The notes below the pieces were generated by a model that saw only the letters and a list, made by a program, of their open reading frames with translations, did no database searches and was not told the origin of the DNA. This document shows positions 5,937 through 29,262 of a stretch of DNA of 37,556 bases, in pieces. The translations under genes were made by a program, and so were the position numbers. Every line of letters begins with the position of its first letter. The stretch's first letter is position 1. The stretch lies in IMG/VR virus record IMGVR_UViG_3300027892_000076, positions 1-37,556 of that record, one strand, 5' to 3'. The DNA comes from a virus. Taxonomy: Duplodnaviria > Caudoviricetes.

Positions 5937-6746
5937 ATGGCTACAATTTTCGAGAGAGTTCCTTTAAGCGGAGAAAACTGTTTAATTCTAGATTCAAAAG
6001 AATCTCTTTCATATCCATTCGATCTTGGAAATTGGGAAAGAATAAGAGTTGGGGTTGCACTCTCTTTAACAAGTTGGTCACAACTAAATGGAGGAATAGA
6101 ACCAGAGCAAATTGAAAATGCGGGGAGATATGATTATACAAGAAGTTTTTACTTTGGAATAAAAACAAATAATGAATCTTATCCCGATTCGAATAAATGC
6201 TCTTATATCGGAGTTGGAAGTGAAAATGTAGCACCTCCATATTATAATAATAGCCCTCTTACATTATATACTTATAATAATGGTCAAACGTGTGAAATTT
6301 ATTATGCAGTTCCAGTTATTGTACCTAGTGGAAATTTTAATGAGCAACCCGCATATACTAATTATACCCAGATAAAATTGCCTCCTACTATTAATCAAAG
6401 TGGACTAAATTCTTATTTTTGTAATATGTTTTGTTTGGAAATTAAAATAAAAAATAGAGGAACATCAAATCAATCTTATTCTATTGCTATGAAGTTTCAT
6501 CAAAATGATGCTGAATCTCAGGCAAATGGTGCTCCACCCTTTGCTTTGAATTTTCCATCTTTAAGCCAAATGAGAAAAGACTTAGCTAATATTGCATTTA
6601 CTTCATCTCCAGATACTGGTTATTTTACATCTACTTTTAATAATTCGGGAACACCAGCGCCAATACCTGATGCTTTATATATTCACAATCCATTTCTCTT
6701 CAATAGATTAAGGGTACATGGAATATTAATCGAAAAGTATTCTTAA
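5937..6746 (+). CDS. Hypothetical virion protein, paralogue A of a tandem pair
   Basis: 269 aa, clearly homologous to 6823..7626 (MATIF.RVP.SG..CL.L..KESL.YPFD.G.W ... PAPIPD..YI.NPF..NRL..H.ILIEKY). Confidence 0.75.
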   Translation: MATIFERVPLSGENCLILDSKESLSYPFDLGNWERIRVGVALSLTSWSQLNGGIEPEQIENAGRYDYTRSFYFGIKTNNESYPDSNKCSYIGVGSENVAPPYYNNSPLTLYTYNNGQTCEIYYAVPVIVPSGNFNEQPAYTNYTQIKLPPTINQSGLNSYFCNMFCLEIKIKNRGTSNQSYSIAMKFHQNDAESQANGAPPFALNFPSLSQMRKDLANIAFTSSPDTGYFTSTFNNSGTPAPIPDALYIHNPFLFNRLRVHGILIEKYS

Positions 6747-6822: not shown

Positions 6823-7626
6823 ATGGCTACAATTTTCGATAGGGTTCCTGCCAGTGGGCATAAATGCTTGGTTTTAGAACCAAAGGAATCTCTTGTCTAT
6901 CCATTTGACTTCGGAGACTGGGAGGAGATCAGAGTTTGTGTTGCGCTTTCTTTGGCAAATGTATCTGGATTTGATCAAACTTTGCAAAACGAATCAATTG
7001 TTGGTATTTATAAAGAAGATTATGCAAAAAATTTTTATTTAGGAATAAAATCAAATAATGAATTTTATCCGAATAAAGATTCATGTTCTTATATAGGTAT
7101 TGGACCACGAATTTCTTCTTTAGGAGAGTCTTTCAATCTTAATGCTAGTATATCATATTATAATAACTCTATTGGCTACGGTTATGCTAATGTAAGTGCT
7201 TCAATTATACCAAGCGGAGCAACTGGATATAATTTTAACTTTAGTTATAATGATTTATCGACTATAATAATGCCATCACCATTTACTCTGACTGGAGAGC
7301 TAAAACTACTAGATACATATTTTTGTAATGTATTTGGAATAAAAATAAAAATAAAAGATAAAGGAACATCTAATCAAAATTTTTCTATTACTATGTTCAA
7401 TAATAATGATCAACAAGATGATCTTTTGCAGTTTCCTTCTTTACAAAACATGAAAGTTGCTCTGGGTACAATGATTGGTTCTAGTAATGAATTAACTGGA
7501 TTTTTTACATCAACATACAACAACTCAGGAGTTCCGGCTCCGATTCCTGACTCATTTTATATCTCAAACCCTTTTAATTTAAATAGATTAATGATTCACA
7601 ACATCTTAATAGAAAAATACGCTTAA
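6823..7626 (+). CDS. Hypothetical virion protein, paralogue B of a tandem pair
   Basis: 267 aa, homologous to 5937..6746; preceded by its own AGTGTA motif. Confidence 0.75.
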   Translation: MATIFDRVPASGHKCLVLEPKESLVYPFDFGDWEEIRVCVALSLANVSGFDQTLQNESIVGIYKEDYAKNFYLGIKSNNEFYPNKDSCSYIGIGPRISSLGESFNLNASISYYNNSIGYGYANVSASIIPSGATGYNFNFSYNDLSTIIMPSPFTLTGELKLLDTYFCNVFGIKIKIKDKGTSNQNFSITMFNNNDQQDDLLQFPSLQNMKVALGTMIGSSNELTGFFTSTYNNSGVPAPIPDSFYISNPFNLNRLMIHNILIEKYA

Positions 7627-9602: not shown

Positions 9603-10556
9603 ATGCCATTCTATCAATCAACGCAAGTTAAAATGTCTTCGGGAACAGCGGGGACCACATTCCAAACAATTGAGCGCGTTCAAAGCGCAACAGTTGGTTA
9701 TCAAATTCCAAGAGCCGATGTAAGCCAAATCGGAAGATTCAGCCCTCTAAAAGAAAGACCAGTTGTAAATTATACTCCTGTATCTTTTTCAGTAGAAGCC
9801 GTAAAAAGCTCTAAAGAAATAGAAACTAATTTTGGCTTAGTAAATAATACTGGAATTGGAATTCTTATTGGAAGAACAGACGGAATTTCTGTGGCTGGCT
9901 TTGGGGCTAGAAATTTTGAATTTCTTAATTCACAAGCTAATACAGCTAACTACGAAAATAAATTAACTATTTTAAGTGGATGTATTAACTCTTATTCCGT
10001 AAGCGCCAATGTTGGTGATTTCGCAAAAGTTTCTGTAAATGGCGAAGGATTAGATTTAAGAGTTGAAAATTTTACAGGAGCAAAAGAAAATATTGCTGTT
10101 CCAACTGCTTTAGTTCGCAGTCAAGATATAGCAATTTCTGGAATTCAAGTCAGCGGCGCGGGATTGACTGGATTTAGCCCACAAAGTTTTAACCTTTCTG
10201 TAAATTTTACTAGACAAGCAGTTGCAATTTTTGGACAAAAATTCCCAACAAGACCAATGACCGCTATAGCCGCATCTCTTTCTATGAATGGATTCTTAGA
10301 GGGCGTTAATCCATTAAGCGGTCTTTCTCACTTTGATTGTGGAAATGCTCTTACTGGAAGCATCTTTATCACATTAGTTTCACCATGCTCTGGGGCTTCA
10401 GCCGCTACAACTTATAGAGTTGTAAATCCATACATTGATTCATTCAATCTAGGTTCTTCAGTTGGCGCATATACCTCTGCCGAGCTAAATATGTCACTTC
10501 CAATTAGCATAGATGCAAACGAAGCAGCTGATAGTTCAAATTTAATCATTACCTGA
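9603..10556 (+). CDS. Tail-tube-like protein, paralogue 2
   Basis: IERVQSATVGYQIPRADVSQIGR matches VPRAQSFSHDFTINRQDVNQLGQ of 10613; shared C...PC motif. Confidence 0.7.
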   Translation: MPFYQSTQVKMSSGTAGTTFQTIERVQSATVGYQIPRADVSQIGRFSPLKERPVVNYTPVSFSVEAVKSSKEIETNFGLVNNTGIGILIGRTDGISVAGFGARNFEFLNSQANTANYENKLTILSGCINSYSVSANVGDFAKVSVNGEGLDLRVENFTGAKENIAVPTALVRSQDIAISGIQVSGAGLTGFSPQSFNLSVNFTRQAVAIFGQKFPTRPMTAIAASLSMNGFLEGVNPLSGLSHFDCGNALTGSIFITLVSPCSGASAATTYRVVNPYIDSFNLGSSVGAYTSAELNMSLPISIDANEAADSSNLIIT

Positions 10557-10612: not shown

Positions 10613-11728
10613 ATGGGCAGAAATCGCATCCTTTACCAATCTCAAGCCGTTTTTATTTCAAGCGGAACCGCAAACAGTTTCGCTTTCACAAGCGGTAACT
10701 CTGGACAGAATTTACTTCTACAAGTTCCTCGCGCTCAGTCTTTTTCTCACGACTTTACAATTAATCGTCAAGATGTTAATCAACTAGGCCAATTAGCCAG
10801 AGTTGACTCAATCATCACCGAAGCTCCTACTGTAAACGCTTCACTTCAGTATTATCCCCTAGACGGATTTGCGGAATCAGCTTTAGGATTTTTCGTTAAA
10901 GGTAATGTCTCTTGCTTAAGCGGCATTCTTTCTAAATCTACTGACCCAAAGAATCTTTTCTGTCTAGTTACCTCTGAAGGTGCAGACGCAGTAGGAAATA
11001 CTAGTAGCGGCGTTAATGGTGTTGTTTCCCTTGGCAATGCTTCAGTCTCTAACATCGCTTGGAATTTCGCTGTTGGCACTATTCCTACTTGCGATGTTAC
11101 TTTCGAGGCTCTTAACGTCAAATACGATACTGGCACTCAAAATATAGCTTCCCCTGCTGTAGCCTTGGAGAATGGAAGACCCGTTACCGGACAGACTTTC
11201 AGTATTCCTGTCGCCCAAACCTATACTGGCACTAATATCATCTCAGCCATTAAACCCGGTGACGTAACATTAGAAATCAATAATGCTGATGCTACTGCTC
11301 TTGGTATTTTCATGAGCGGTGCTAATGCTGTTCCTGTTCAAAGTATTAATATCAGCATTCCTCTTGCTAGAGAAAATCTAAATCGTCTAGGAACTCTATT
11401 CAGCTACGCTAAAGTAGAAACTTACCCAATCACTCCTACCGTTCAGATTGAAGTTCTACAAACTGAATTAAAATCAAGCGCACTAAGCAATGTTCTTTGT
11501 AACGATGAATTTACAAATTTCTCTGTTGTGTGCCGTGAGCCAAATTGTCAAGGAACTGGTGCTGTTGCGATGAGATTCGATATTCGTCGCGCTAAACTAG
11601 AAAGCCAAAATCAAAGTAATGCCGTTGGTCAAAATGCTGCAACTGTAAGCTTAAGCTATAGCTGCACAATCGGTGGACCAGAAGATAACATAAATGGTAT
11701 CTTCATTAGTGGCAAAAATGCATTCTAA
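10613..11728 (+). CDS. Major tail tube protein (paralogue 3, probably the main one)
   Basis: 371 aa, high-expression codon bias like the capsid gene, followed by a strong terminator and upstream of chaperones and TMP. Confidence 0.75.
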   Translation: MGRNRILYQSQAVFISSGTANSFAFTSGNSGQNLLLQVPRAQSFSHDFTINRQDVNQLGQLARVDSIITEAPTVNASLQYYPLDGFAESALGFFVKGNVSCLSGILSKSTDPKNLFCLVTSEGADAVGNTSSGVNGVVSLGNASVSNIAWNFAVGTIPTCDVTFEALNVKYDTGTQNIASPAVALENGRPVTGQTFSIPVAQTYTGTNIISAIKPGDVTLEINNADATALGIFMSGANAVPVQSINISIPLARENLNRLGTLFSYAKVETYPITPTVQIEVLQTELKSSALSNVLCNDEFTNFSVVCREPNCQGTGAVAMRFDIRRAKLESQNQSNAVGQNAATVSLSYSCTIGGPEDNINGIFISGKNAF

Positions 11729-13853: not shown

Positions 13854-16800
13854 ATGGCAACTCCCTCGGTCACACTCTCAGCAAGAATAGAAACTGCTCC
13901 AATCTTAAAACAGATTAGAGAACTTGAAAAAACACAGAAATTAAATTTTCAAATAAACGAAAGATCTGCGCTTGCTCCTTTAGGTAGAATTAGAACTGGC
14001 GTTGACCAAGTAGGAAATTCTCTAGATGCTGCTAATCAACGTGTTTTAACATTCGGTGCTTCAGCATTTGCTTTGGGTGGAACTGTTAGAATTTTCAATG
14101 AAATAGTTAGCTCTACAATCAAGGTAGAGAAAGCTCTTTTAGATATTAATTCTGTTTTAGGTTTGTCATCAAAAGATTTATCTTCCTTTAAAAGAGAACT
14201 TTTTGATGTTGCTAGAAATGCCTCACAATCTTTTGATGCGGCTGCAAAGGCTGCGCTTGAATTTTCTCGTCAAGGTCTTGGTGCTGAAGAAACAGTAAAA
14301 AGAGTAAATTCCGCTCTTATTCTATCAAGGTTATCAGGATTGGATGCTGCAAGTGCTGTTGATTCTTTAACTAGTGCAATTAACGGGTTTTCCAAAGAAG
14401 GACTAACCTCAACTCAAGTCATCAATAGATTAGTTGCAGTTGACACTAAATTCGCCGTATCTACAAAAGACTTGGCCGAAGCTCTTTCTCGCGTAGGTTC
14501 TACCGCTCAAGACTCAGGGGTAACTTTCAATAAACTATTAGGTATCATAACTTCGGCACAACAAATTACTGCCAGAGGTGGTGCTGTAATTGGTAATGCT
14601 TTCAAAACAATCTTCACAAGGATACAACGCCCAGAAGTATTGGACCAACTTGAATCTTTTGGTATTGCCGTAAGAGATTTAAGCGGAGAAGCTTTATCTG
14701 CCGATAGAATTCTAGAAAATTTGGGTGGAACATTCGATTCCTTAACAAAGAGTCAACAACAAGTCGTAGGCGAACTTTCTGCTGGTATTTACCAAATCAA
14801 TCAATTTAGAGCGATTATAACTGATTTAGCTAGAAGTTATAGCGTTGTAGAACAAGCTACATATGCGGCTTCTTCCGCTACCGTGGAAGCGCAAAAGAGA
14901 AATGAATCCCTCAACAAATCTTTAGATAGCTTAATTCAAAATTTCAAAACAAGTGCGTCAGAAATAGGTGATTCTGTTGGTAAAATAACTATAGCTCCAT
15001 TGCTTGAGGAAATTTTATCAGGAAATAAAATCATAACCAGCTTTCTTGACTCATTTCGTGGCGCTGGCAAAGATCCTGAGATACAAAACGCAGGTGAGGC
15101 TATCGCTAGTGGATTACTAAAAGGAATTGGAAATGTAATAAGTGGTCCGGGACTAGTTACAATCGGCACTTTATTAACAACCGTTCTTTCAAAGACATTT
15201 TCAGTCATTAGAGATGACGTAGTAGGTCTTTTTCCAGGCAGAAATAAAGAACTTGAAGCAATTAGAGGTTTGAATGTCTTATTGGCTTCGGCTTCATCCC
15301 AAGATAAAACCCGTCTATCGTTAGTTACGGGAATAGTAGAAAAAGAAAAGATTATTTTAGAGATTTTAGCTAAACAAAATGCTTTACGGGCTGCACAAAA
15401 TACCCAACAAGCAAAGGAAATTTATTCTTTGGGTAAAACGTCTCCATCTGCTGTAAAACAATTAAGGTCGTTAGGTAAAACTGGTAGTTTTGCTAGTGGT
15501 TATTCTCCTATTCAGCAAGAGATGTCTGCGATAAAGAAAGGTGTTGGCGGTGCTTCGCCGTCTGCCAAACCCGTCGTAATGCCTAATTTTAATTTTGGTA
15601 ACGGCAAAAGAGGAACAGCTGTTGTAAATACAGATGAATATGTAGTTCCAAATTATGCATTCGGTGGAACTGCTGTGTTTAATAAGAACATGGTGAAAAA
15701 AATGGGTCTTCCGTCAGGCGCAAGAAAAATTAATGCGGCGGGTGGATTCGTTCCTAATTTTGCACCAAAAATGACCACTCTTTACCGTGGTATGGCTTCA
15801 CGATTTGGAATGGAAGATTCTTCAAAATTTAAATCAGCTGCATATGCTGGAAATTGGGAAGGTCTAGGATCAATTCATAGGTTTAAAGATTTGATGGATT
15901 ATCTTGCTCGCTCAAGAAATAGTACACAGCCAGGAATAGTTCCAACTACAACAAGTTTTAAACAAGGTTTGAAGTTTATGGAAGTAGATGGAGTAAAACC
16001 AAAAAAATTTAGTGAATTAAATTTTGGAGATCAACTTGGTGCTAGTAAATCTGGAGATAATCAAGCTCTTATGGTAGATCAGATAAGATCTAATAGAATT
16101 TATAGTGACCCACAGAAATTAGAAAAACTATTTAATAGATTAGGTTCAGAAAAGTTTATGCAAGTAGCTTCTGGAGGTAAAATTGGAGTAAGTTCGGATT
16201 TATTAAAAAGATATTTTAAGAGTATTGGAAATAAAGATGTATCAGATATGATAGAAACTTTTTCTTCTGAAAAAGAAGTTTCTTTATTTAATTCATTAAG
16301 TGATAAAGCAAGGCTTTATAGTCCAAAAGGAAATATTTTTCCTAAATATAAACATCCCTTTGGTGATGTTTCTATAGCTTCTGGTCATATTCCTAATTTT
16401 GCAAAAAAAACACCTTTTGAGTCTCAGTTTGAAATGTTAAATAAGCTTGGGCGTGGTTCATATAAAGATATTTATAATGTTGCGGCACTAAATAGTGTAC
16501 AAGGGGATTTATTTGAAGATAAATTCAGTGGAATGGGATTAATAAAAGGCATCGATCCAAAAGAACTAGTATTATCTGTTTTAAGAAGAAAAAATAAAGA
16601 TTTTGATAAATTACGAGCTTTAAATACATCAGGAGCATTTGCACCACAAATATTTGATACTGGAAAAGTTACTATTGGTGGAAGAAAAAAAGAAGCTGCA
16701 TTAATCGAAAGACTACAACTTATTGAGTATCCTGAAATACGAAGAATGCTTCCTGGTAGAAATGAAATTTCTGTTCAATCTAATATAGCAAAAGTTTTAA

Positions 16801-19800
16801 CTAATTACTTAAAACCATATCTAGAAGGATCTAGAAATTCGGGTTTTGCTGGCCAATATGCTGGAGATTTAAGAATTGATAATTTAGGAGTTACGAAATC
16901 AGGAGATTTAGGTGCTGTTACCGATATTTTAGCTGAATTAGGTGAATCTACTGGAAAACCTGGTCCATATGAACTAAGAAGAGCAGGGCAAGCCTTTAAC
17001 CAAGGATTAAGAGTTTTAGATGCTGGTTATTTACGTCCAAAAGGTATGGCGGATGGATTTGTTCCTAATTTTGCTAATGAAAGATTTATTAAAAGTGGAG
17101 TAGCAGAAGAATTAGCATCTGGAGTTGAAGGAACTGGATACAGATTGGGAGATTCTAATTTAGTAACAAAAAAATATAATAATCTTAGCGCCTTAAGATC
17201 AGAATACATTCTTTCAAAGATGCTTGCTAATGAAAAAGTAGCAGGTATGGAATTTTTAGCTCCAGTTGGATCATTGAAACGATCATTAGAGCGTGGATAT
17301 ACTGCAAAACCAAAAGCCAGTAATGTAAATTATCTAAGAACCTTAGAAGAAAGTGGTGCAAATAGTGGTATTATTACTTTATTATCTCGTATTATTGATA
17401 ATACTGCAACAAAAGCAATAGATCCAATTTTAACAAAAAATTTATTCGGAGCCCGTGCAGATATTCATTCTGGAAACTATGGAATAAATGAACGTGGAAA
17501 GAAAATTTTTGATAATATAATTGGCGTTGGAAAAAATAGATCTAAACAAAGAAATTCTGAAATTTTTAAGAAATTAAGTGATAGTATTATATCTCGCAAA
17601 GGATTTGCAGATAATTTTCTATCTAAAATAGAAAAAGCTGGTGGAAAAATTGAAATTTTTGATCCAGCTTATTTTAGTACAAGTTATATTGGCGAAAGTA
17701 ACGCAAGATTCATAGATAAATACAAATTAGGTAAAAAACAATCTTCATTTCCTGATTTTCTAACTCCTGAATTGGCTGGAGGTCATATTCCTAATTTTGC
17801 AAATATGCGCCTTCCTCGCGCTCAGTTAGCAGATTTACTTAAATCTAAAAAATTCCAAAGCATTTATTACACAAAGAAAAATGGAGAATCTGCAAATTAT
17901 AATGCTGCTCAATGGAGAGTGAATCAAGATCAACTTGTTGGAGCAGATGCGCCAAAAGCATATGAAAGTTGGACTGATTATGATGAGAAAACAAATAGTA
18001 TCGTTCTAAATTCCCTTAAAGAAGGGCAGGGCAAGGCTACACCGAGAAGATTTTTGCTAGATAACATAAGTCGTGTTAGAGCAAACGGCAATACTTACGA
18101 TGTATTCGCTAATGGTTATATTCCTAATTTTTCAGATCCTCTCCGTTCCGCTATTTCTCGCGAAGTAGCTGCTGGCGTAAGTTTAAAAGATATTTATATT
18201 GATAATGATAATAGAGTTAAAAGCTCTTCCAACCCAATGGGTCTACTAGTTGCGAATCGCCGCGACGAGCCATTCGATGGTTCTCAAGGTGTTTCACGCG
18301 CATTAAAAGAAGGAATTAATCCAAGAACTTATGGTGCGGCAAATGGCTTTGTTCCTAACTTTGCTGAATTTGATAAATTAACAAGTAGAACTCCATCCAA
18401 AATGGTTGGAACTAAAACTAAAGATGTATTTGGTAATGTAATAAATTACGCAGAAGTGATGGATATTGGAGGTGGACAAACGTCCGCTCAATTAAGGTCT
18501 TTATTTAGATCCTTAAGACAGGAAGGAACTAATTCCGTTGATGCTTTTAAGAAAACTACTAAAGAAATTATAGATTTATCTCAAAGTGCTAACTTAGTTG
18601 GAAAATCTTTAGAAGAAATAAAAACTAAAATTGGTGTTGCTGGGAAAAAACTTGTAACAAATCTTACTATTGCTGGTGCTACTAGAGCGGCGGAACTTAA
18701 ACAAGCAGATCAAGATCAAGCTAAATATAAAACCGAATTAGCTGCTCAAGAAGCTAGAAGCAAAGTATTAGCTCAACAATTTGCTCAAGGGAAAAAAGAA
18801 CTTCCAGAAACTGTAACACCAAGTATATCTGCCGCTGAAAAAGCACGAAGCGAACAAACTGCAAGGATTCAAAATTTAACTCCACAAACAATTCAGGCTC
18901 AAAAAGAGCAAATGTTTGCGGCTATTAGTAGGTCTAATGCCATTTATCCATCTCCGTCTATAAAAGATAGTCAAGTTAAGGAAGCTTATAAAGTAATAAA
19001 TGCAGAACAAGATGCTAAAGACGAAATTAAAAAAGCTCAAGATGCTGCTCAAGATGCTCGTAGAAGAATTCTATCTCAGCAATTCAAAGAAGGTGAATCG
19101 GAATTATTAAGACAGGTAAATCTTAAGCCTTCGGCACAAGAAATTGCTAGAAATAAGCAAATTAGAAAAATTCAAAATTTAACTCCACAGGCAATTCAAG
19201 CCCAAAAAGAGAAAATGTTTGCGGCTATTGATAAGTCTAATTTTATTCCTAAGACTCCAGCATTAACTGAAGAAGAGATTATTCAGTCTTTACAAGCAAC
19301 TCAAGAACCAGTAAGGATTTATAGAAATGGAGTTCTTTCAAGTGGTAATAATATTCCAAAACTTAGTTATGTTCCTGGTTCTTACAGATCCCCTAACTCT
19401 GCCTTAGTTCCATATAATCCAGCATCTGGTCCATCACCAGAATCTGGTCTATTGCCATCATACCCGTTTTCTAGTCAATTTTCTAATGATTTAATTAATA
19501 GAAGAGTTCGTAGAGAAAAAAATGTTACTCCTGGATTCTCTATTCCTCTGCCTACTTCCTCTAACTTTTCTGTTGGAGATCGTAGATCAGGTGGCGCTGG
19601 TCGTGTTAATACTGGCAATGGACCTATTATAGATGCCGAAGAAGTAATACCAAATTTTAGAACAACAATTAAAAAAGTTACCGATGCGATTATGGGCGCT
19701 GGAATTGCGGGAGCAATTGGCGTTGGATTAAGTGGTGGTGGTTCAGCTGGTCCAATGATAGGGGCGGCTGGTGCTATTTTTGGTGGGATTGGCGGATATA

Positions 19801-22800
19801 AATATGGCTTTAATTCTTCGTCATCTGGAGGTTCTGATAAATCAGAAACTGATTATAGCAGGTTTCGTCGTCCTACTTCTCCTACTGTTGATGCGGAAAT
19901 TATTCCTCCTCCATCTTCGCCTCCCCCACCTTCGCCACCTTCGCCACCTTCGCCACCTTCGACTCCTCCACCTGCACCACCTCCTCCACCTCCACGACCA
20001 AGCCCCCCTCTTCCTCCAGAGCCCTTATCAGATGTAACTCGTAGAGAACTTTATCTAAAGAAGCAATTAACAGGACTTTCTAACGAACAGATAAAAACTC
20101 TTTTATCGAAAGAAAGATTAGGTCCAACTGGAAGAACACAAGATATTAATTACTTACGTGATATTTTATCTTCAAAATCATACACTTCAGGTGGGGGTGT
20201 TGATCAGTCTGTTATCAATCAAACATTAGGACTTGCCAAATCAGGAACTTTAGGAACTGATTTTAATCAAAGTGTTAAAAATCTTGTTTTAAAAGGGAAA
20301 TCTTTAGAAGCCGCCTATGGAATAGCTTCTAGGAATTTAATTGCTTCTGGTGGAACAAGTAAACAACTTAATACGGCTCAATTAAAATACGCCTACTCAT
20401 TAGTTGATTTTGAAAAAGAAATAAAAGCACAAAAAGCTTCGCTTTCAAAAGAAATTCAAAATCAAAAATTATCTACAAAAGTTGATAAAGTTGGTATATC
20501 TGGTCTTACAAGAAAAGAAGGAGCGAGTTATTTTGCAGCTACAAGAGAAGGCGTATCGCAAGAATTATTTCCTGGTTATGATCCACAAGTCTTAGCTAAT
20601 GATAAAGAAGCTCAAAAACAAATTACCATAGCCGCTGCGCAAAAATATAAAAAATTAAGAATAGATGCAGATCAAGCAATAGCCGATAAAATTGGCGACG
20701 ATTATGCAATTGATCGTCAAAAAAATAAAGGACTTTTTAGTTTTGGAAATGAAATTGACAAAGCAGATACATATATACAAAATAATCCAACTCTTTCAAG
20801 AAGAGCCCAATCTTCCATAAGATCTCGCGCTCAAGGATTACAATCTATACGCGACAATAAAATATCTAATGCTGGATTTGCGGCATCAATAGCTCTTCCA
20901 TTACTTTCTGGATTCGTTCCAGAGAGAAGAGGTGGAACTACTGGCGGAATTGCTGGTGGTGCTGCGACCGGAGCTTTAAGTTTCGCTGGAACTGGTGCAT
21001 TAATTGGATCGGCAATTGCTCCCGGACCAGTTGGAACTATAGCTGGTCTTGGTATTGGTGCAGTAGTTGGTGGTGTAATTGGAGCTATAGGAAAATTAAA
21101 AACAAGCTTTGAAGAGTTTGCAAGAGATATTGAAAATAATAATGCCGTTTTCGCAAGACAAATTGAAGCCGCAAATGGTTATGTTCAACTTCAACAAAGA
21201 ATAAATGATGCAATTGACTCTGGCGCAAACCCTAATGATATTAAAAATCTTCAAAAACAACAATTTGACTCCCTAAAAGGGATAAGAGATCCAGCCGTAA
21301 GAGAAGCATTACTAGCAGGTGGTTCTGATGTTAATAAGATTTTAGCTGCCGCAAGACCATTATCTGCGGGTGCTTCAAAAACCGCGCTTGCTGGCGATGT
21401 AGTGTCAAGTCTTACTAGCGCAAGGGGAGATAGCTTTTTATCTGGGAATTTTAGCCCAGAGTCAATTTCAAATGCTGCTCAGGCATTAGCTGCGGCAACT
21501 GATTTATCAAATAAAGAAACAAGCGAGGCTTTTTCAAGGTTTAGAGAGGTATTTGAAAACGATCCATTAAAAGCATTTAAGGAATTCGCACCATCATTAG
21601 GATTAAGCGCATCTCAGATTAAACAAACAGTTGACAAATTAAAGGACAGTCCTGATGATTTGGCATTTACTTTTAGAAATTACTTACAATATGTTGATGA
21701 GTTTAATAGTCAATTGAGTGAATCTGCTAAAAATACAGAAATAATTTCTAAGATAAGAATATCTGAAGTAAAAAATAATTTAATAGCACAGATTAACAGA
21801 CAGTCTGCGCTATCGGAAATATCTAGTTCATCTATTTCTCGTCAAAGAAAAAATGTAGGTTTAGCTTCGTTAAGTCTTCTTTCTGGACTAAGTGAACAAG
21901 ATAAAATAGCTAGAGCGGGTTCTATTAATCAAAGAGAAATACAAGATCAGGGTTCTATTGGGGCAAATCGCATAATTAGCCAGCTTCAATCTTCTTTAGC
22001 GACGGTATCTGGATCTGGAAAAGCTAATTTTACTAGCGACTCATTTAAGCAAATAGAAAGTATTTCATCTACAGAAGATATAAATAAATTAATTGATACA
22101 ATTGGAAAGGGCAACAAAGAAGTTGCAGACTTACTTAGAGATGCTTCCCTTCAATTAGAAATTAATGCCGCAACAACTAAAGCTAGTTTAGACGAAGATA
22201 GAATTCAGACAAAAATAATGTCTGTTCAGTCCAAGGTTGAACAAAGAAATAGAGTTTTAGCTAATTCTACTTTCAATCCTGATACAATTCAATCATTCAT
22301 TGAATCATCTATTCTTGGAAGAACAAAGGGTCCGTCTTCTTCGGCTTTTCAACTATCAAGTATATCAACACTTGATGCTTTGGGATTACCTGAGACAGAA
22401 AGATCTACTTTAGTCAAAGAAATACTAAGAACCTCATCCGCAAAAGAGACTTATGCAGAAATTCTTTCCTCTATAATTGGAGAGCAAGTAAAGTCAGATG
22501 AAGCATCTATAAGGAAAGCTGTAAATAAAATTGAATCTGGTGAATCATATGATCTGTCTTCTAAAATAGCTGCTGAAAGAATATCAAAAGGTATTGATGT
22601 AATAAAAAGCAGACCAGAAAATGATTTATTGGATTTAAGTAGTGGCAAAACTGATGTTAGAGCATTTGCTGCTCAAGGAAAAATATCTTTTGAGACAGGA
22701 ACTTTAGCAACTAAACTTGATCCTCTTGAAAATATAGAAACATACACAAGAATAACTGCTGATTTCTTTAAAGATAGATCTGGGAAAAGCACTTCTGAGT

Positions 22801-25800
22801 ATTTTGGAATTTTGTCTGCGGAGGCTCCAAAAGATCAATCAATAGAAACACTTAGGAAAAAAACTGAAATAGAAGGAAAAATTGAAATAGAGAAACAGAA
22901 ACTTAGAGAAATGGACAGCAGAAGACTGCAATCTACTCCTGTTGATTTTGGATATAAAAATCAATATCAGCCTCCGATTATTCCATTTAGTAATATTTCT
23001 TACGATGGTTTAATTCCTAATCCGCCGATTCCAAAATTAACTGCTGAAGAAAGAAGAGCATTTGAAGAAGATAAATTGTTTGCTGCTGTTAAAAGTTATT
23101 CCACCGAATCTCGTAAGATTGACGAGGGACTTGGATTAACACCTAAACCTAAGCAAGACAGTTTAGCTGACTTTAGAGATTCTTTAAAAAATAAAGATGC
23201 AACTAAACCAGTAGAGGGCGTTAATCTTAATCTTAAAGAAATTGACTCAGCTTTATTAAGATTTGCTGTTTCATTTACAGGAGTTCAAGAAAAAATAATA
23301 TCCAATACAAATGATAGGATACAAGATTTAGAATCACAAAAAAGAAAACTAGAAATCTCTTTAGAAAAAACAAATAACTTTAGATTCTATAATCCTAATC
23401 TTCCATCAGGCCAATCTAAATTTGACCTATCAACTTATTTAAACGGAATAGGTCCAAACCCAAATAACTTTAATAATCCTAATCTTCCAAATAATCCAGC
23501 ATTTAGAGTTTCTGATGTTCCAGACTATAACGATGAAGAAGCTCAAAGAGAAATAGAGAAAGAAAAATTAAGAAATCAAATAGAAGATGCAAGAAAAAGA
23601 GCAAGAACTAATTCTGAAGCAGAATTAGAAGTTTCTAAGACTAAAGAATCTTTATATGATAGACAATTAACTCAAGCTAGAGAAGATGGAGAAAGTCGTC
23701 TTACTATTCTTGATCTTGAAAGAAAGATTACAGGCGAAAGACTTAAACAAGCTAAAATAGAAGAAAGGTATGGTGATACGTTCAACCTTGCGATACAAGG
23801 AAAAATGCAAGAGGATTCTGGTAGTAAGAGTGATCGTGCAGCAAATGTAGCTAATGCTGTTTATGAGGAATTTAAAAGTAGACCAGTTTCTAGAGAACAA
23901 TTAGAAGATTCTAAGAACGCAGAATCTTTCTATAATCAAAGATTAACTGAAGCTAAAACAAATAGAGGAAGTCGTCTTGACATTCTTGCTATTGAAAGAA
24001 GGATTACAGACGAAAAACTTAGACAAGCTAAAATAGAAGAAAGGTCTGGTGCGACATTCGGACTTACGATAAAACAAAGAATGCAAGATGCCGCTGCTAG
24101 TATGAGCGATCTTTCAGATGTAGCTAATACTGTTTTTGATTCATTTGAAAGTAGAGCGGGTAATTCGTTTGGCGATTTCGTAACTGGAGCAAAAAATGCA
24201 AAAGATGCTTTCAGGGACTTTATAGGAGGAGTATTGAATGATACCGCAAGAGCATTTGCATCTAAAGCTGTTCAGCAGTTTATTGGTGCTGGATTTCAAG
24301 CTGCTGGAGTTGTCTCTCCCTTTGCGGCAGGTGGACCTGTTAAGAAATATGCGGGTGGACCTATTCAAAAATATGCTTCTGGTGGATCTGTTCAAGCCTT
24401 ATTAACTAAGGGTGAATACTACATATCACCAGATTCTGCTAATGCTATTGGAAGAGAAACTCTTGATTCCATAAATAATGGAACAATGAAAAAATATGCC
24501 TCTGGAGGCAAAGTTTTCGGCGGAATGAATTTCGTTGTTAACGATGGTTCAGGAATAAAAGATGACGTTGCTGCTACTCTTCAGTCTGGCGGCTATGTAA
24601 TCAAGAAAAGTTCTGTTGAAAAATATGGTCAAGATTATATCAAAAGTTTAGCCGAAGGCAAAGTTCAGAAGCGTATTATTGGTGGTATACTAATTGGCAT
24701 GGCCATTGGTGCTGCCGTTGGTGGTGTGGTTGGTTATGCGACTGGGGGCAAAAAAGGCGCAATAACTGGGGCTATTATTGGTGGTATTGCGGGTGGCATT
24801 GGTGGATATCTATATGGTGCGCCTGGTGCTGGAGGCTCCGTAAGTTCTGGAAGTTCTGGAAGTTCTGGAAGTTCTGGAGTTTCTGTAAATTCCCCTTCCG
24901 CTGGTGTTGGCGTTGGTCCTGGATCTACACCTTCATCAGCTACTTCTTTCGGGGTGGTTGGTCAAGGTTCAAGTGTTGCTGGTGGAAATTCCTTGAGTAA
25001 TTTTTCATACGGTAGTGAAGGCAGCTTCGCCTCGATGGGAGGTGGTCAAGCTGCCATTAGCGCGGGTCAAGTTACTGCATTTCCTGCTGCTGGAGCACCT
25101 GCATATGCAGCGAGTGCTGCGACACCTGCATATTCGCTTAAGGGTGCTTTAGCAAGCGTAGGTATAGCTACCGCTCTTGGTTTTGGTGCTCAAGCTCTTC
25201 AGCCTAAAATTAAATCAAGTTCAACAGCTTCTATCCCTGCTGGCGCTCAATTAAGAACAGAGTCGGAAATGAAAGATGGCGAATTTGCATTCTTAGAGGA
25301 AAATCCTCAAGGCGGATACACTCTTGCTGGATATGCAGGGGCTCCAGCTACAAGAAGATATTCAAGGGGCGGCATGGTTTCCAATGAAGTACCTTTGGCT
25401 TCTGCTCTAAGTAAATATGCAAATGGTGGGAAAGTTTCATCAAGTGTATCTTTAGCTTCTTTGAAACCAGTTTCAAACAGGTTCCAAGAAAACAATGAAA
25501 TATTTAAGCAAATTTCAAGTAGAAATAATAACGGAACCTTATCAGATATGTCTATGGCATCTATTTCTAATAAGTATTCAAATGGGAATAAAATGGTTTC
25601 TAATGATATGCCCATAGCTTCTGCACTAAATAAATATGCAGATGGTGGAGAAGTTTCATCAAGTGTATCTTTAGCTTCTATGTCTAATAACTATTCAAGT
25701 AGTGGAAAGACACCCTTGGCTTCTATTTCTAATAAAAATAGTAACGGAATGTTATCAGAAATGTCTATGGCATCCATGTCTAATAAGTATTCAAATGGCA

Positions 25801-26189
25801 ATCAGATGATTTCAGATGTATCTATTCCATCAACATATAAGAGATATGCAAATGGTGGAGAAGTTTCATCAAGTGTATCTTTAGCTTCTTCTTTCAATAG
25901 ATATGCAGAAGGTGGAGAGGTTTCAGATACTCCTTCGCCAGTTTCCATATCTAAATCAGAAAATTCTACTCAGAATATTGTATCAAGTCCATCTGTTTAT
26001 ATTAAGATTGATATAAATAATAATGGACAAATGTCTTCTGAAACCAAAGAAGATAAGGGTAAGGATTCACCATTTGGCGAAGATTTTGGTCAAAAACTAT
26101 CTCGTCAAGTAAGAGATATAGTTAAAGATGAAATGACTCAACAATCTCGCGTTGGTGGAGTGAATAGTCAAATAAGAAGGACTAAATAA
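13854..26189 (+). CDS. Giant tail tape measure protein (4111 aa) with internal enzymatic cargo domains
   Basis: N-terminal TP901-type TMP core (EKALLDINSVLG...FSRQGLG...DLAEALSRVGSTA...IGNAFKTIFTR), coiled coils, Gly-zipper hydrophobic segments and C-terminal 'YAxGG' and 'LTKGEY' TMP motifs. Canonical position between chaperones and the gpM-like gene. Confidence 0.92.
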   Translation: MATPSVTLSARIETAPILKQIRELEKTQKLNFQINERSALAPLGRIRTGVDQVGNSLDAANQRVLTFGASAFALGGTVRIFNEIVSSTIKVEKALLDINSVLGLSSKDLSSFKRELFDVARNASQSFDAAAKAALEFSRQGLGAEETVKRVNSALILSRLSGLDAASAVDSLTSAINGFSKEGLTSTQVINRLVAVDTKFAVSTKDLAEALSRVGSTAQDSGVTFNKLLGIITSAQQITARGGAVIGNAFKTIFTRIQRPEVLDQLESFGIAVRDLSGEALSADRILENLGGTFDSLTKSQQQVVGELSAGIYQINQFRAIITDLARSYSVVEQATYAASSATVEAQKRNESLNKSLDSLIQNFKTSASEIGDSVGKITIAPLLEEILSGNKIITSFLDSFRGAGKDPEIQNAGEAIASGLLKGIGNVISGPGLVTIGTLLTTVLSKTFSVIRDDVVGLFPGRNKELEAIRGLNVLLASASSQDKTRLSLVTGIVEKEKIILEILAKQNALRAAQNTQQAKEIYSLGKTSPSAVKQLRSLGKTGSFASGYSPIQQEMSAIKKGVGGASPSAKPVVMPNFNFGNGKRGTAVVNTDEYVVPNYAFGGTAVFNKNMVKKMGLPSGARKINAAGGFVPNFAPKMTTLYRGMASRFGMEDSSKFKSAAYAGNWEGLGSIHRFKDLMDYLARSRNSTQPGIVPTTTSFKQGLKFMEVDGVKPKKFSELNFGDQLGASKSGDNQALMVDQIRSNRIYSDPQKLEKLFNRLGSEKFMQVASGGKIGVSSDLLKRYFKSIGNKDVSDMIETFSSEKEVSLFNSLSDKARLYSPKGNIFPKYKHPFGDVSIASGHIPNFAKKTPFESQFEMLNKLGRGSYKDIYNVAALNSVQGDLFEDKFSGMGLIKGIDPKELVLSVLRRKNKDFDKLRALNTSGAFAPQIFDTGKVTIGGRKKEAALIERLQLIEYPEIRRMLPGRNEISVQSNIAKVLTNYLKPYLEGSRNSGFAGQYAGDLRIDNLGVTKSGDLGAVTDILAELGESTGKPGPYELRRAGQAFNQGLRVLDAGYLRPKGMADGFVPNFANERFIKSGVAEELASGVEGTGYRLGDSNLVTKKYNNLSALRSEYILSKMLANEKVAGMEFLAPVGSLKRSLERGYTAKPKASNVNYLRTLEESGANSGIITLLSRIIDNTATKAIDPILTKNLFGARADIHSGNYGINERGKKIFDNIIGVGKNRSKQRNSEIFKKLSDSIISRKGFADNFLSKIEKAGGKIEIFDPAYFSTSYIGESNARFIDKYKLGKKQSSFPDFLTPELAGGHIPNFANMRLPRAQLADLLKSKKFQSIYYTKKNGESANYNAAQWRVNQDQLVGADAPKAYESWTDYDEKTNSIVLNSLKEGQGKATPRRFLLDNISRVRANGNTYDVFANGYIPNFSDPLRSAISREVAAGVSLKDIYIDNDNRVKSSSNPMGLLVANRRDEPFDGSQGVSRALKEGINPRTYGAANGFVPNFAEFDKLTSRTPSKMVGTKTKDVFGNVINYAEVMDIGGGQTSAQLRSLFRSLRQEGTNSVDAFKKTTKEIIDLSQSANLVGKSLEEIKTKIGVAGKKLVTNLTIAGATRAAELKQADQDQAKYKTELAAQEARSKVLAQQFAQGKKELPETVTPSISAAEKARSEQTARIQNLTPQTIQAQKEQMFAAISRSNAIYPSPSIKDSQVKEAYKVINAEQDAKDEIKKAQDAAQDARRRILSQQFKEGESELLRQVNLKPSAQEIARNKQIRKIQNLTPQAIQAQKEKMFAAIDKSNFIPKTPALTEEEIIQSLQATQEPVRIYRNGVLSSGNNIPKLSYVPGSYRSPNSALVPYNPASGPSPESGLLPSYPFSSQFSNDLINRRVRREKNVTPGFSIPLPTSSNFSVGDRRSGGAGRVNTGNGPIIDAEEVIPNFRTTIKKVTDAIMGAGIAGAIGVGLSGGGSAGPMIGAAGAIFGGIGGYKYGFNSSSSGGSDKSETDYSRFRRPTSPTVDAEIIPPPSSPPPPSPPSPPSPPSTPPPAPPPPPPRPSPPLPPEPLSDVTRRELYLKKQLTGLSNEQIKTLLSKERLGPTGRTQDINYLRDILSSKSYTSGGGVDQSVINQTLGLAKSGTLGTDFNQSVKNLVLKGKSLEAAYGIASRNLIASGGTSKQLNTAQLKYAYSLVDFEKEIKAQKASLSKEIQNQKLSTKVDKVGISGLTRKEGASYFAATREGVSQELFPGYDPQVLANDKEAQKQITIAAAQKYKKLRIDADQAIADKIGDDYAIDRQKNKGLFSFGNEIDKADTYIQNNPTLSRRAQSSIRSRAQGLQSIRDNKISNAGFAASIALPLLSGFVPERRGGTTGGIAGGAATGALSFAGTGALIGSAIAPGPVGTIAGLGIGAVVGGVIGAIGKLKTSFEEFARDIENNNAVFARQIEAANGYVQLQQRINDAIDSGANPNDIKNLQKQQFDSLKGIRDPAVREALLAGGSDVNKILAAARPLSAGASKTALAGDVVSSLTSARGDSFLSGNFSPESISNAAQALAAATDLSNKETSEAFSRFREVFENDPLKAFKEFAPSLGLSASQIKQTVDKLKDSPDDLAFTFRNYLQYVDEFNSQLSESAKNTEIISKIRISEVKNNLIAQINRQSALSEISSSSISRQRKNVGLASLSLLSGLSEQDKIARAGSINQREIQDQGSIGANRIISQLQSSLATVSGSGKANFTSDSFKQIESISSTEDINKLIDTIGKGNKEVADLLRDASLQLEINAATTKASLDEDRIQTKIMSVQSKVEQRNRVLANSTFNPDTIQSFIESSILGRTKGPSSSAFQLSSISTLDALGLPETERSTLVKEILRTSSAKETYAEILSSIIGEQVKSDEASIRKAVNKIESGESYDLSSKIAAERISKGIDVIKSRPENDLLDLSSGKTDVRAFAAQGKISFETGTLATKLDPLENIETYTRITADFFKDRSGKSTSEYFGILSAEAPKDQSIETLRKKTEIEGKIEIEKQKLREMDSRRLQSTPVDFGYKNQYQPPIIPFSNISYDGLIPNPPIPKLTAEERRAFEEDKLFAAVKSYSTESRKIDEGLGLTPKPKQDSLADFRDSLKNKDATKPVEGVNLNLKEIDSALLRFAVSFTGVQEKIISNTNDRIQDLESQKRKLEISLEKTNNFRFYNPNLPSGQSKFDLSTYLNGIGPNPNNFNNPNLPNNPAFRVSDVPDYNDEEAQREIEKEKLRNQIEDARKRARTNSEAELEVSKTKESLYDRQLTQAREDGESRLTILDLERKITGERLKQAKIEERYGDTFNLAIQGKMQEDSGSKSDRAANVANAVYEEFKSRPVSREQLEDSKNAESFYNQRLTEAKTNRGSRLDILAIERRITDEKLRQAKIEERSGATFGLTIKQRMQDAAASMSDLSDVANTVFDSFESRAGNSFGDFVTGAKNAKDAFRDFIGGVLNDTARAFASKAVQQFIGAGFQAAGVVSPFAAGGPVKKYAGGPIQKYASGGSVQALLTKGEYYISPDSANAIGRETLDSINNGTMKKYASGGKVFGGMNFVVNDGSGIKDDVAATLQSGGYVIKKSSVEKYGQDYIKSLAEGKVQKRIIGGILIGMAIGAAVGGVVGYATGGKKGAITGAIIGGIAGGIGGYLYGAPGAGGSVSSGSSGSSGSSGVSVNSPSAGVGVGPGSTPSSATSFGVVGQGSSVAGGNSLSNFSYGSEGSFASMGGGQAAISAGQVTAFPAAGAPAYAASAATPAYSLKGALASVGIATALGFGAQALQPKIKSSSTASIPAGAQLRTESEMKDGEFAFLEENPQGGYTLAGYAGAPATRRYSRGGMVSNEVPLASALSKYANGGKVSSSVSLASLKPVSNRFQENNEIFKQISSRNNNGTLSDMSMASISNKYSNGNKMVSNDMPIASALNKYADGGEVSSSVSLASMSNNYSSSGKTPLASISNKNSNGMLSEMSMASMSNKYSNGNQMISDVSIPSTYKRYANGGEVSSSVSLASSFNRYAEGGEVSDTPSPVSISKSENSTQNIVSSPSVYIKIDINNNGQMSSETKEDKGKDSPFGEDFGQKLSRQVRDIVKDEMTQQSRVGGVNSQIRRTK
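15765..16376 (+). other. TMP cargo domain 1: ADP-ribosyltransferase-like (R-S-E clade)
   Basis: TTLYRGM (R at 15786), IVPTTTS...GLKF (15936), SSEKEVSL (E-x-E at 16269-16277), in canonical order. Confidence 0.7.
16404..17048 (+). other. TMP cargo domain 2: protein-kinase-like fold
   Basis: KLGRGSYKDIY Gly-loop (16446), APQIFD, ALIERL hinge, GDLRIDNLG catalytic loop (16866), RVLDAG DFG-equivalent (17019). Confidence 0.7.
17076..17774 (+). other. TMP cargo domain 3: second protein-kinase-like fold
   Basis: ELASGVEGTGY Gly-loop (17112), LVTKK beta3 Lys (17169), SEY helix-C Glu, ADIHSGNYG catalytic loop (17460), IEIFDP (17661). Confidence 0.7.
17802..18107 (+). other. TMP cargo domain 4: WYL/Sm-like SH3 beta-barrel
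   Basis: FQSIYYTKKNGE...IVLNSL...RRFLLDNISRVRANGNTYDV resembles the F/Y-x-K-K-D/N-G ... R-x-F-x-x-D-x-I pattern of small phage WYL-like proteins. Confidence 0.55.
18744..19250 (+). repeat. Internal duplication in TMP, 303-nt (101-aa) period
   Basis: IQNLTPQTIQAQKEQMFAAI (18867) vs IQNLTPQAIQAQKEKMFAAI (19170); ATTCAAAATTTAACTCCACA is identical in both. Confidence 0.9.
19905..20024 (+). repeat. Polyproline tract in TMP including (CCACCTTCG)x4
   Basis: PPPSSPPPPSPPSPPSPPSTPPPAPPPPPPRPSPPLPPEP; perfect 9-bp tandem at 19926-19961. Confidence 0.95.
23634..24150 (+). repeat. Internal duplication in TMP, 276-nt (92-aa) period
   Basis: SRLTILDLERKITGERLKQAKIEER vs SRLDILAIERRITDEKLRQAKIEER; CAAGCTAAAATAGAAGAAAGG at 23748 and 24024. 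Confidence 0.9.
24843..24878 (+). repeat. (AGTTCTGGA)x4 tandem encoding (SSG)4 linker
   Basis: Read directly from sequence. Confidence 0.9.
25350..25925 (+). repeat. C-terminal Ser-rich degenerate repeats of TMP ([KR]Y[AS]xGG.VSSSVSLAS)
   Basis: The 29-bp AAGTTTCATCAAGTGTATCTTTAGCTTCT is identical at 25432, 25651 and 25861; KYSNG, KYADGG, RYANGG and RYAEGG recur. Confidence 0.9.
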
Positions 26190-26216: not shown

Positions 26217-26969
26217 ATGGCAGTTCAAAATATATTTTTTCCATATTCAAGTTCAGCAAATTACAAGAAATTCGATGTAATTAGAGGGACTTCGGTTTCT
26301 GATGCATATTATTTTTATGCAACTCAGGATTCATCGAATCAAAATCCAAATTCAATCTTTTCATATAATGTAACTTCTTACGTTACAGATGATAATAAAA
26401 CTACGGTTTTTTTTACAAAAACTGGTCTTGGTACTAATCTTGGTCCTAATTTCGCCGCAGGATCTTTGATAGCTGTTTCGGCAACATTTTTGGGAGAAGC
26501 TAATTTTACTGGAATGGCGATAAATGGTGGATCAGGTTTTGTAGAATTTATAAATGAAAGGCAATATGGTAATGGAGGGGCTGGAGGCTTAGTAAAAACT
26601 TCACTTAGTCATTCTTGGACAAGTGGTTTTATGTTTATTCCATCTTATTCTTCATCGCAAGAAATAAAAGCAAGAAAAAATGAAGCTAAATTTGGTGATG
26701 GATATTCTCAAAGACAAAGAGACGGATTAAATAGCGTAAATTATAATTGGAGATTAAACTTTGAAAATAGAAGTGATAGAGAAGCTAGAGCTATATCTAC
26801 TTTTGTGGAAGACAAAGCTGGTATAGAATGGTTTAATTTACTTATGCCAGTAAATAACTTGACAAATAATCCAAGTAATAGGTATATTGCTGACTCAGCA
26901 CAAATAACAACCAATTCATACAACTTAAACACAATATCTGTTGATATACAACAAGTATTCGATATATGA
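26217..26969 (+). CDS. Lambda gpM-like minor tail (distal tail) protein with N-terminal extension
   Basis: Signature AKFGDGYSQRQRDGLN...WRLNF...F; directly after the TMP. Confidence 0.85.
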   Translation: MAVQNIFFPYSSSANYKKFDVIRGTSVSDAYYFYATQDSSNQNPNSIFSYNVTSYVTDDNKTTVFFTKTGLGTNLGPNFAAGSLIAVSATFLGEANFTGMAINGGSGFVEFINERQYGNGGAGGLVKTSLSHSWTSGFMFIPSYSSSQEIKARKNEAKFGDGYSQRQRDGLNSVNYNWRLNFENRSDREARAISTFVEDKAGIEWFNLLMPVNNLTNNPSNRYIADSAQITTNSYNLNTISVDIQQVFDI

Positions 26970-27874
26970 GTAAAACAGTAACAAATCTAGAAGCAACAAA
27001 ATTTAATCCAAGCGCATTATTGTCTTTGTACGAATTAGATGCATCAAGTTTAGGAGGTCCGATTTTACGTTTTCATGATGGATCTTCAAATAATTATAAA
27101 AATATAACTTTCAATGGAATTGAATATACTGCTTTTCCGGTATTCCTAGAGGGATTTGAATACGATGGAAAAGGGTCTTTGCCTAGACCGAAACTTAGAG
27201 CGGCTAATATAAATGGTTTCGTTTCTTATTACATACTTAATGGAAATAATTTAATAGGAGCTAAATTTTCAAGAAAAAGAGTTTTTTCTAGATTTATAGA
27301 TGCTGTAAATTTTGATAATGAAATAAATCCTTATGGCCTAGCAGATCCAGAAGCAGCTTATGCTGATGATATATTTTTCATAAATAGAAAAATAACAGAA
27401 AATAAAGATTATGTTGAATTTGAACTAACAACTGCATTAGAAATAGATAATGTAAAAATTCCAAATAGAATGGTTTTTGCTCGTATATGTGGCTTTAAAT
27501 ATAGAGATTCTTCGTGTGGATATACTGGCGATCCAGTTGCTGATAGAAATAATAAAGCTATGACTGGAGGTGCTGGAACTTATGGCTTTACACTTATTCC
27601 TAGAGGAGAATATAATGAATCTTTTACTTATAATTTAGGACACTTTGTTTCATTAACAAGTACGTTAAAAGAAACTTTAGGAGAAAAAATTTTTTATGTT
27701 GCTAATCAAAATGGCATAATTGGAATTGAAAACGGTCCAATAAAATCTCCTGGCAAATGGGTTGCTGATTTTTGTTCAAAAAATATTGGAGGATGTAAAA
27801 AAAGATATCCATCGCCACAAGTTTTAAAATTTGGTGGATTTCCTGGCGTTGCAAGAGGACCATATGTAATATGA
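26966..27874 (+). CDS. Lambda gpL-like minor tail protein (Fe-S cluster cysteines)
   Basis: LYELDAS, GSLPRPKL, VEFEL, four Cys (ICGFKYRDSSCGYTG; FCSKNIGGCKKRY) and C-terminal FGGFPG. Confidence 0.9.
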   Translation: MSKTVTNLEATKFNPSALLSLYELDASSLGGPILRFHDGSSNNYKNITFNGIEYTAFPVFLEGFEYDGKGSLPRPKLRAANINGFVSYYILNGNNLIGAKFSRKRVFSRFIDAVNFDNEINPYGLADPEAAYADDIFFINRKITENKDYVEFELTTALEIDNVKIPNRMVFARICGFKYRDSSCGYTGDPVADRNNKAMTGGAGTYGFTLIPRGEYNESFTYNLGHFVSLTSTLKETLGEKIFYVANQNGIIGIENGPIKSPGKWVADFCSKNIGGCKKRYPSPQVLKFGGFPGVARGPYVI

Positions 27875-29228: not shown

Positions 29229-29262
29229 GGTTTAGCATTTAATATTTAACATTTAAAAAATT

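Follow-up and report, generated by a model that had tools for sequence, protein, structure and literature searches.

A phage tape measure protein with a peptide-fenced array of exchangeable predicted enzymes, a possible magazine for injection into the host

Tape measure proteins (TMPs) fill the lumen of the phage tail and leave it on infection. What else may travel inside such a protein is the question raised by IMG/VR record IMGVR_UViG_3300027892_000076, which was analysed here over a stretch of 37,556 nt (the window) that holds the morphogenesis module of an uncultured lake phage. Its TMP gene (13854-26189, + strand; 4111 residues) contains, between two scaffold domains, a row of domains separated by copies of one short peptide. 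We found that this layout recurs in relatives, that the enclosed domains are gained, lost and reordered rapidly at the peptide, and that the peptide is under selection as a peptide. We give a probability of roughly one in two to the reading that the array is a magazine, which would be packed in the tail tube, enter the host before the DNA does and probably be cleaved at the peptide, with release of the predicted effectors.

The gene encodes a TP901-type TMP. Its N-terminal core (about residues 1-545) matches PF10145 (E = 2e-25 over residues 120-303; 90 bits against a cut-off of 33.2) and TIGR01760 (E = 7e-34; 117 bits against a cut-off of 28.8), and eight PHROG TMP families match the protein. 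It is the longest gene of the tail module, contains hydrophobic segments and is followed by distal-tail and tip genes. The peptide A-x-G-[FYH]-[VI]-P-N-F, located by sequence pattern, occurs six times in it, at residues 629, 842, 1066, 1308, 1419 and 1496 (15738-15764, 16377-16403, 17049-17075, 17775-17801, 18108-18134 and 18339-18365, all + strand, with copies 5 and 6 inside scaffold domain B), and a ninth residue, [AS], completes the delimiter. The original prediction had counted six copies with spacers of 204, 215, 233, 102 and 68 residues, and we reproduced both on the open reading frame (ORF) 13854-26189. The looser pattern G[FYH][VI]PN[FY] also matches six times in the TMP frame, with no match in the five remaining frames of the window. 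Composition alone predicts 2.7e-5 copies per protein for a motif that was defined post hoc, and six copies cannot be chance. The array is no assembly artefact or chimera either, because the assemblies L181 and L182 differ from the window over the array by 1 and 2 mismatches in 2877 bases and contigs of run X5 tile it. The layout consists of scaffold domain A, a motif and a cargo repeated n times, and scaffold domain B; in the window n is four, the cargos (c1 to c4) are mutually unrelated, and the array is internal, spanning residues 638-1418 of 4111. Four of the five cassettes that had been proposed are therefore cargos, and the fifth, of 68 residues, belongs to B, a conserved scaffold domain homologous to A.

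Domain A (15489-15764, + strand; residues 546-637) forms the left boundary of the array, with a degenerate motif at its start and motif 1 at its end, and domain B (18108-18365, + strand; residues 1419-1504) forms the right boundary, holding motifs 5 and 6 and no cargo. Across relatives, A and B are conserved and everything between them varies: A is 49-90% identical to the window in 20 aligned relatives, and B retains invariant residues across 62 sequences. Measured against the related locus L001, the ratio of nonsynonymous to synonymous substitution rates (dN/dS) is 0.12 for the TMP core, 0.14 for A and 0.28 for B. With deep alignments, hhalign related A to B at 95% over 85 columns, a match driven in part by the motif, which was all that had aligned in a first, shallow comparison. 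A profile of A found no match in the PDB, and a model of B, folded jointly with c4 and barely tested, gave nothing above Z 3.1 in the B range; in that c4-B model the motif residues lie in low-confidence, linker-like stretches. Prediction of an A+B complex scored 0.01, which is evidence neither way. A- and B-like motif-bounded domains also occur at several sites along the TMPs of the complete relative G004 (L264:7306-19998, - strand), L020, L025 and L150. The loose motif matches 13 times in the fetched portion of the G004 protein, and L020 has three copies of A; further arrays may thus exist closer to the C-terminus.

The family to which this array belongs is large. Among 1.84 billion representative proteins, 999 match the B profile at E<=0.001, and the profile recognized most candidate stretches, namely 301 of the 322 from viral contigs, 303 of the 386 from metagenomes and 6 of the 8 from prokaryote genomes. 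Five matches in bacterial metagenome-assembled genomes, from four unrelated groups, are probably mis-binned phage contigs. From 179 loci and the window we obtained 92 distinct A..B arrays, in a census that omits ORFs with A alone or B alone inside the fetched DNA. One cassette is present in 47 arrays, two in 21, three in 14, four in 7 and seven in 2; an apparent array of zero cassettes (L163) was a pattern miss, with degenerate motifs and a homologue of c1 present. Single-linkage clustering sorted the 173 cassettes into 27 families, arranged in 37 architectures. The commonest family, F0, occurs in 82 of the 92 arrays, is the sole cassette in 46 and is missing from those of the window, L001 and L149. 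Its residues G, D and K are invariant and F and E nearly so, and we take it, from these motifs, to be a PD-(D/E)xK-like nuclease; its profile gave no nuclease match in the PDB.

Exchange of the cassettes is fast and takes place at the motif. A quick tree served to pick close pairs, which were then measured directly: in 18 of 24 pairs with TMP cores at least 90% identical the architecture differs, and L049 and L056, which share 448 of 450 core residues, have no closely similar cassette in common. A constant TMP with variable cargos, as the original prediction had envisaged, is what these arrays display. The related expectation that domain boundaries would respect the motif was also borne out, as 43 of 61 internal alignment ends, taken from the 43 arrays with at least two cassettes, fall within 15 residues of a motif (5.5 expected), compared with 2 of 68 at masked decoy sites (9.0 expected). 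The order of the cargos changes as well. It is c1-c2-c3-c4 in the window, c1-F4-c2-c4 in L001 and c3-F4-c4 in the partial array P0059, with each shared cassette 72-99% identical. At 77-87% identity these orders are cyclic (c2 before c3 in the window, c3 before F4 in P0059, F4 before c2 in L001), so that deletion from a single ancestral array is insufficient to explain them. One contig of run X18 reads c3-c4, 417 extra letters and B, with a matched motif stretch on either side of the insert; apparent joints that skip c2 or c3 had sides of 24-25 bases, probably stem from motifs of other phages and were not used. Ordinary recombination between phages that infect the same cell is the probable route of cassette movement, and joints would be retained only when they are in frame and preserve the peptide.

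The conserved entity at these joints is the peptide. Over 481 distinct motif sites in 157 ORFs, the codons of the motif Gly, Pro, Asn and Phe are used at near-background levels: CCT and CCA make up 0.49 and 0.33 of the Pro codons (0.45 and 0.38 for Pro before Asn), AAT makes up 0.67 of the Asn codons (background 0.70), and all four Gly codons are in use. At these sites no nucleotide conservation extends beyond the encoded residues, as it would at an integron-type DNA cassette site. Motif copies of the same gene share synonymous codons in 1816 of 3588 comparisons (1773.5 expected), which shows no within-gene homogenisation. Such free synonymous codons indicate a peptide signal rather than a DNA recombination site, and the role as a DNA exchange site that had been considered for the motif is not upheld. 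Strict copies are concentrated within A..B (505 of 541, from 191 TMPs). Across five viral records, including the complete G004 (194.5 kb), all motif matches lie in the TMP region, with one record having none, and the looser pattern is absent from the other G004 ORFs of at least 110 residues. Intein self-splicing relies on a Hint domain and a junction nucleophile, Cys, Ser or Thr. The Pfam scan placed no family, Hint included, on A or B, the motif contains no Cys or Thr, and the residue after its Phe is Ala in five of the six window copies and in 89% of all copies matching the pattern.

The second and third cargos have kinase-like sequences, as the original prediction had proposed. For c3 (17076-17774, + strand; 233 residues), all 11 aligned sequences have G16, D129, N134 and D196, and at least 90% have E43; these positions correspond to a Gly loop, the αC Glu, a catalytic D-x4-N and the Asp of the DFG position. 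The best PDB match of the family profile is MAPK13 (E = 0.003), with mostly kinases beneath it. A Gly loop and the motifs D-L-R-x-x-N and D-A-G are present in c2 (16404-17048, + strand; 215 residues), which reaches an ESM feature score of 0.95 to Pkinase/RIO1/ABC1 clusters; its profile, built from an alignment of 2 sequences, matched the PDB weakly (E>=0.19). A protein-kinase-like character is supported for c3 and, less clearly, for c2. The fourth cargo, c4 (17802-18107, + strand; 102 residues), is predicted with moderate confidence to be a WYL/Sm-like β-barrel, in keeping with the earlier assignment of a WYL-like barrel. Its model comprises a helix and a small barrel and resembles small phage proteins in Foldseek searches of viral structures (probability 0.96-1.0, E 0.01-0.03), some of them named as WYL domains. 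VIA matches include SspB (Z up to 3.6), BrxR (2.9) and PafBC (2.7), and no structural match reaches E 0.001 or Z 5. Scans of all four cargos with Pfam, NCBIfam and PADLOC gave nothing significant, and PHROGs returned phrog_2267 alone, for c4 (E = 1e-4). Both c2 and c4 are under purifying selection (dN/dS of 0.26 and 0.27 against L001), so they are not filler. The G+C content of c1-c3 is 0.30-0.33 (0.10-0.12 at third positions), compared with 0.38-0.43 (0.22-0.28) in the scaffold domains and core, which is in line with a foreign origin of these cargos.

The first cargo, c1 (15765-16376, + strand; 204 residues), had been called an ADP-ribosyltransferase (ART). ARTs of the R-S-E type have an Arg on strand 1, an S/T-x-S motif and a terminal catalytic Glu. 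Residues R8 and E171 of c1 are shared by all 5 aligned sequences, including two at only 18% identity, and a P-T-T-T-S / S-A-S-T segment is aligned, so that all three elements can be traced. The model is poor (predicted local distance difference test score, 50.7). With it, VIA returned ART subunits at Z 3.0 (104 residues aligned, root-mean-square deviation 4.1) and Z 2.7 (112 residues, 4.6); in a wide VIA search ART subunits alone gave alignments of more than 100 residues, at Z values tied with those of short helical matches. The best ESM Atlas score, 0.88, is a lead only. Behind the earlier ART call stand the conserved Arg and Glu and a single low-Z match of a poor model. Word-seeded searches, which constitute weak evidence, found no stand-alone homologue of c1 or c4 and gave no usable relative, and homologue searches of viral contigs returned known relatives only.

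How might such an array work? By analogy with tape measure biology, the cargos would be packed in the tail tube together with the rest of the ruler, and the array would then enter the host before the DNA. There the cargos would probably be cut free at the motif peptide, its scissile role and the protease being the least certain step, and the freed kinase, ART-like and WYL-like effectors could modify host proteins, whether defence or host-takeover targets. Since kinases need ATP and ARTs need NAD+, the chemistry suggests that the cargos would act in the cytoplasm. Precedents for parts of this sequence exist. The T5 TMP, pb2, is cleaved between a hydrophobic stretch and an enzymatic domain, and the tail retains the latter (10.1101/2022.09.20.507954). 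In lambda, gpH is ejected after cleavage during assembly, for which neither the site nor the enzyme is yet known (PMC12617516), and the lambda TMP was labelled during injection by a TurboID-ManZ fusion (PMC13190303). Glycine zippers of TMPs have been linked to translocation (PMC10240207). The lambda gpH and T5 pb2 precedents lead us to favour the magazine. More tentative is the full picture, in which a large clade of aquatic tailed phages would maintain a reloadable TMP magazine. Any domain fenced by A-x-G-F-I-P-N-F-A would be packed unfolded, enter the cell before the genome does and be freed through a single processing code, and the payload would turn over faster than other parts of the virion.

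Several observations weigh against the magazine. We found no shared protease among the candidates considered. A gpK-like JAB/NlpC protein is encoded at 3 of 98 loci with at least 2.5 kb after the TMP gene, and a subtilase gene that lies beside the terminase in G004 occurs in 2 of 32 records and 1 of 10 near-complete ones; we rejected both as a general protease. A search of the window TMP for HExxH, which did not extend to the variant HExxxH, gave no match, and the head proteins of G004 lack the delimiter motif. The motif also flanks A in TMPs that have neither B nor an array (L020-L024), so it may predate cargo carriage and be structural. Searches with A, B and the capsid protein gave zero matches in 50,697 GenBank phage records. 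Among 88 cassette representatives compared with Pfam, 6 have E<=0.01 and 2, an SNase and a GNAT, pass the curated cut-off. For the window cargos themselves, the β3 lysine of a kinase is not evident in c2, and neither Foldseek nor profile searches matched c1 to anything in the PDB. With a dN/dS of 0.78 against L001, c1 is under relaxed or diversifying selection, and its ART identity is weak, a lead whose fold is unconfirmed.

The main rival explanation, unlikely in our estimate though the best of the alternatives, is that the cargos are delivered uncut. The motif would then serve for docking or register, with the tail chaperones, the wall of the tube or the A and B domains of adjacent chains as partners, and the enzymes would remain tethered at the site of DNA entry, where they could counter membrane-associated defences that target TMPs. 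The confinement of the motif to the TMP, its presence at both ends of A and B and in TMPs without an array, and the failure to find a shared protease all accord with tethering, and some host defences are known to act on the TMP while injection proceeds (PMC13190303). Simple tethering would not need the motif at every cargo-cargo joint, however, and T5 offers a precedent for cutting a TMP to free an enzyme (10.1101/2022.09.20.507954).

We regard as improbable a cleavage of the TMP at its motifs while the tail is being assembled, after which the cassettes would act late in the producing cell or be discarded instead of injected. Lambda and T5 TMPs are indeed cut in assembly, with a possible loss of half the gpHC copies in lambda (PMC12617516). 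Proteins that act late could be separate genes, however, and the internal position of the cassettes in the ruler places them in the tube lumen; in T5 the cleaved piece remains within the tail (10.1101/2022.09.20.507954).

Alternatively, the array could be a tolerated site of selfish elements, into which the F0 nuclease homes, in an essential TMP gene, while other cassettes hitch-hike with no delivered function. The prevalence of F0, often alone, and its invariant G, D and K suit this explanation, as do the large in-frame terminase insertions of several relatives and a report that TMP genes are hot spots of homing nucleases, which also interrupt them (10.1101/2023.03.23.533998). It is nevertheless quite improbable, given that the arrays of the window, L001 and L149 lack F0, that purifying selection acts on kinase and barrel cargos, that there is no DNA-level site, and that the motif lacks splicing residues. 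Largely refuted by the codon usage over the 481 sites, and hence most improbable of all, is an integron-like cassette system whose DNA recombination site is read in frame by chance as the motif, even though breakpoints fall at the motif and the six window copies have the same Pro codon.

Among known systems, the array under the magazine reading is best described as resembling a TMP-borne variant of polyvalent proteins, in which one large virion protein, believed to enter the cell together with the DNA, combines several unrelated predicted effector domains (PMC5512222). As in those proteins, where 2-15 unrelated domains share a polypeptide and vary between orthologues, the domains here are unrelated, multiple and variable. 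ART and GNAT domains are among the reported polyvalent cargos (PMC9503650, PMC7824862); the candidate conflict enzymes of this type here are the kinase-like c2 and c3, an SNase and a GNAT in relatives and a weak ART, most cassettes being unannotated. Three features differ from polyvalent proteins: the chassis is the essential TMP in the tail lumen, one conserved peptide marks every joint with two homologous scaffold domains as a fence, and the zincin HExxH frequent in polyvalent proteins is missing from the window TMP. The term 'tape measure' has 0 occurrences in the main text of PMC5512222.

Other comparisons are less close. T5 pb2 and lambda gpH share with our proposal a TMP cut in assembly, and the freed enzymatic domain of T5 has been proposed to be expelled. 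Each undergoes one C-terminal cut, with one fixed muralytic domain in T5 and none in lambda, whereas the array here is internal and hypervariable, with up to seven predicted cytoplasm-type enzymes and a repeated joint. Mycobacteriophage TMPs carry variable enzymatic inserts (motifs 1-3; TM4), for which proteolytic activation has been suggested; those are cell-wall hydrolases, few per protein, and the available text describes no repeated delimiter (PMC1796659). MuF-fused effectors and polymorphic toxins likewise join a structural virion protein to exchangeable enzymatic effectors (PMC5512222, PMC9503650), but in those the toxin sits at the C-terminus, the chassis is a head or secretion protein, and stand-alone cassettes occur. 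Unlike the single C-terminal toxin of polymorphic toxins, the cargos here are internal and in tandem. No immunity-like gene lies directly downstream: the next gene of the window is a tail protein of phrog_14, and the next ORFs of relatives are recurring tail-type proteins. Family scans showed no sequence relation of c1-c3 to T4 Alt or T7 gp0.7. The latter is an early-expressed, stand-alone kinase of host takeover. T4 Alt, an ART of host takeover, is injected with the DNA as a head-packaged stand-alone protein (PMC5512222).

The architecture is real and widespread, and apparently undescribed. We found no motif-fenced array of variable enzymes in a TMP in the open literature (subscription papers or the supplements of Iyer et al. 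2017 could hold one), and the literal motif string occurred in one unrelated paper. If the magazine reading is true, the TMP, usually seen as a ruler and channel, would be a general protein-injection route of long-tailed phages, and hundreds of uncharacterised cassettes would be candidate host-takeover or anti-defence enzymes for the first moment of infection. It would also provide a natural design for putting a chosen protein into a phage tail. The repeated peptide makes testable how and where TMPs are cut, a matter also raised by the lambda site and enzyme (PMC12617516).

Beyond the array, the TMP contains glycine-rich hydrophobic segments detected in hydropathy windows (20862-21107, + strand), a candidate membrane-channel part. 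Its C-terminal region (24321-25916, + strand) has about ten [FY]-[AS]-x-G-G repeats, the last five in Ser-rich units that lie nearly in tandem, and a hydrophobic Gly-zipper segment (24672-24752); A and B have no profile similarity (<1%) to this aromatic-A-x-G-G domain family. The region directly after B (18366-20100) comprises an internal duplication of ~60-100 residues, a Pro-rich tract and a Gly-rich hydrophobic stretch. It diverges fast (dN/dS of 0.65 over 400 residues against L001), and other strains have 30-nt insertions and a 303-nt deletion there. Downstream of the TMP gene lies a lambda-like tail-tip module (26217-32982; gpM/L/K/I/J-like, including a JAB-NlpC gpK). Given the 3 of 98 related loci with enough flank that have a gpK-like match, this module is variable within the clade, in contrast to the retained motif system.

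Upstream, the head-tail region has, by sequence resemblance, three tube-like genes (3636-4802, 9603-10556 and 10613-11728) and a paralogous pair encoding 267-269 residues (5937-6746 and 6823-7626). RNA run X20 provided contigs alone, covering 12 of 30 bins, and was not used as evidence of expression. In seven relatives (G001, G005, G011, G017, G030, G034 and G036) the terminase large subunit has in-frame insertions, which are probably inteins and bring it to 1027-1577 residues from ~623. G004 further encodes a DUF1501 protein, a ClpB/C-like ATPase, the subtilase beside the terminase and a C92 papain-like amidase (L270:3809-5086, L271:6163-8616, L274 and L272:6426-6986), as well as a long block of ORFs that at first sight resemble glycan-modifying enzymes.

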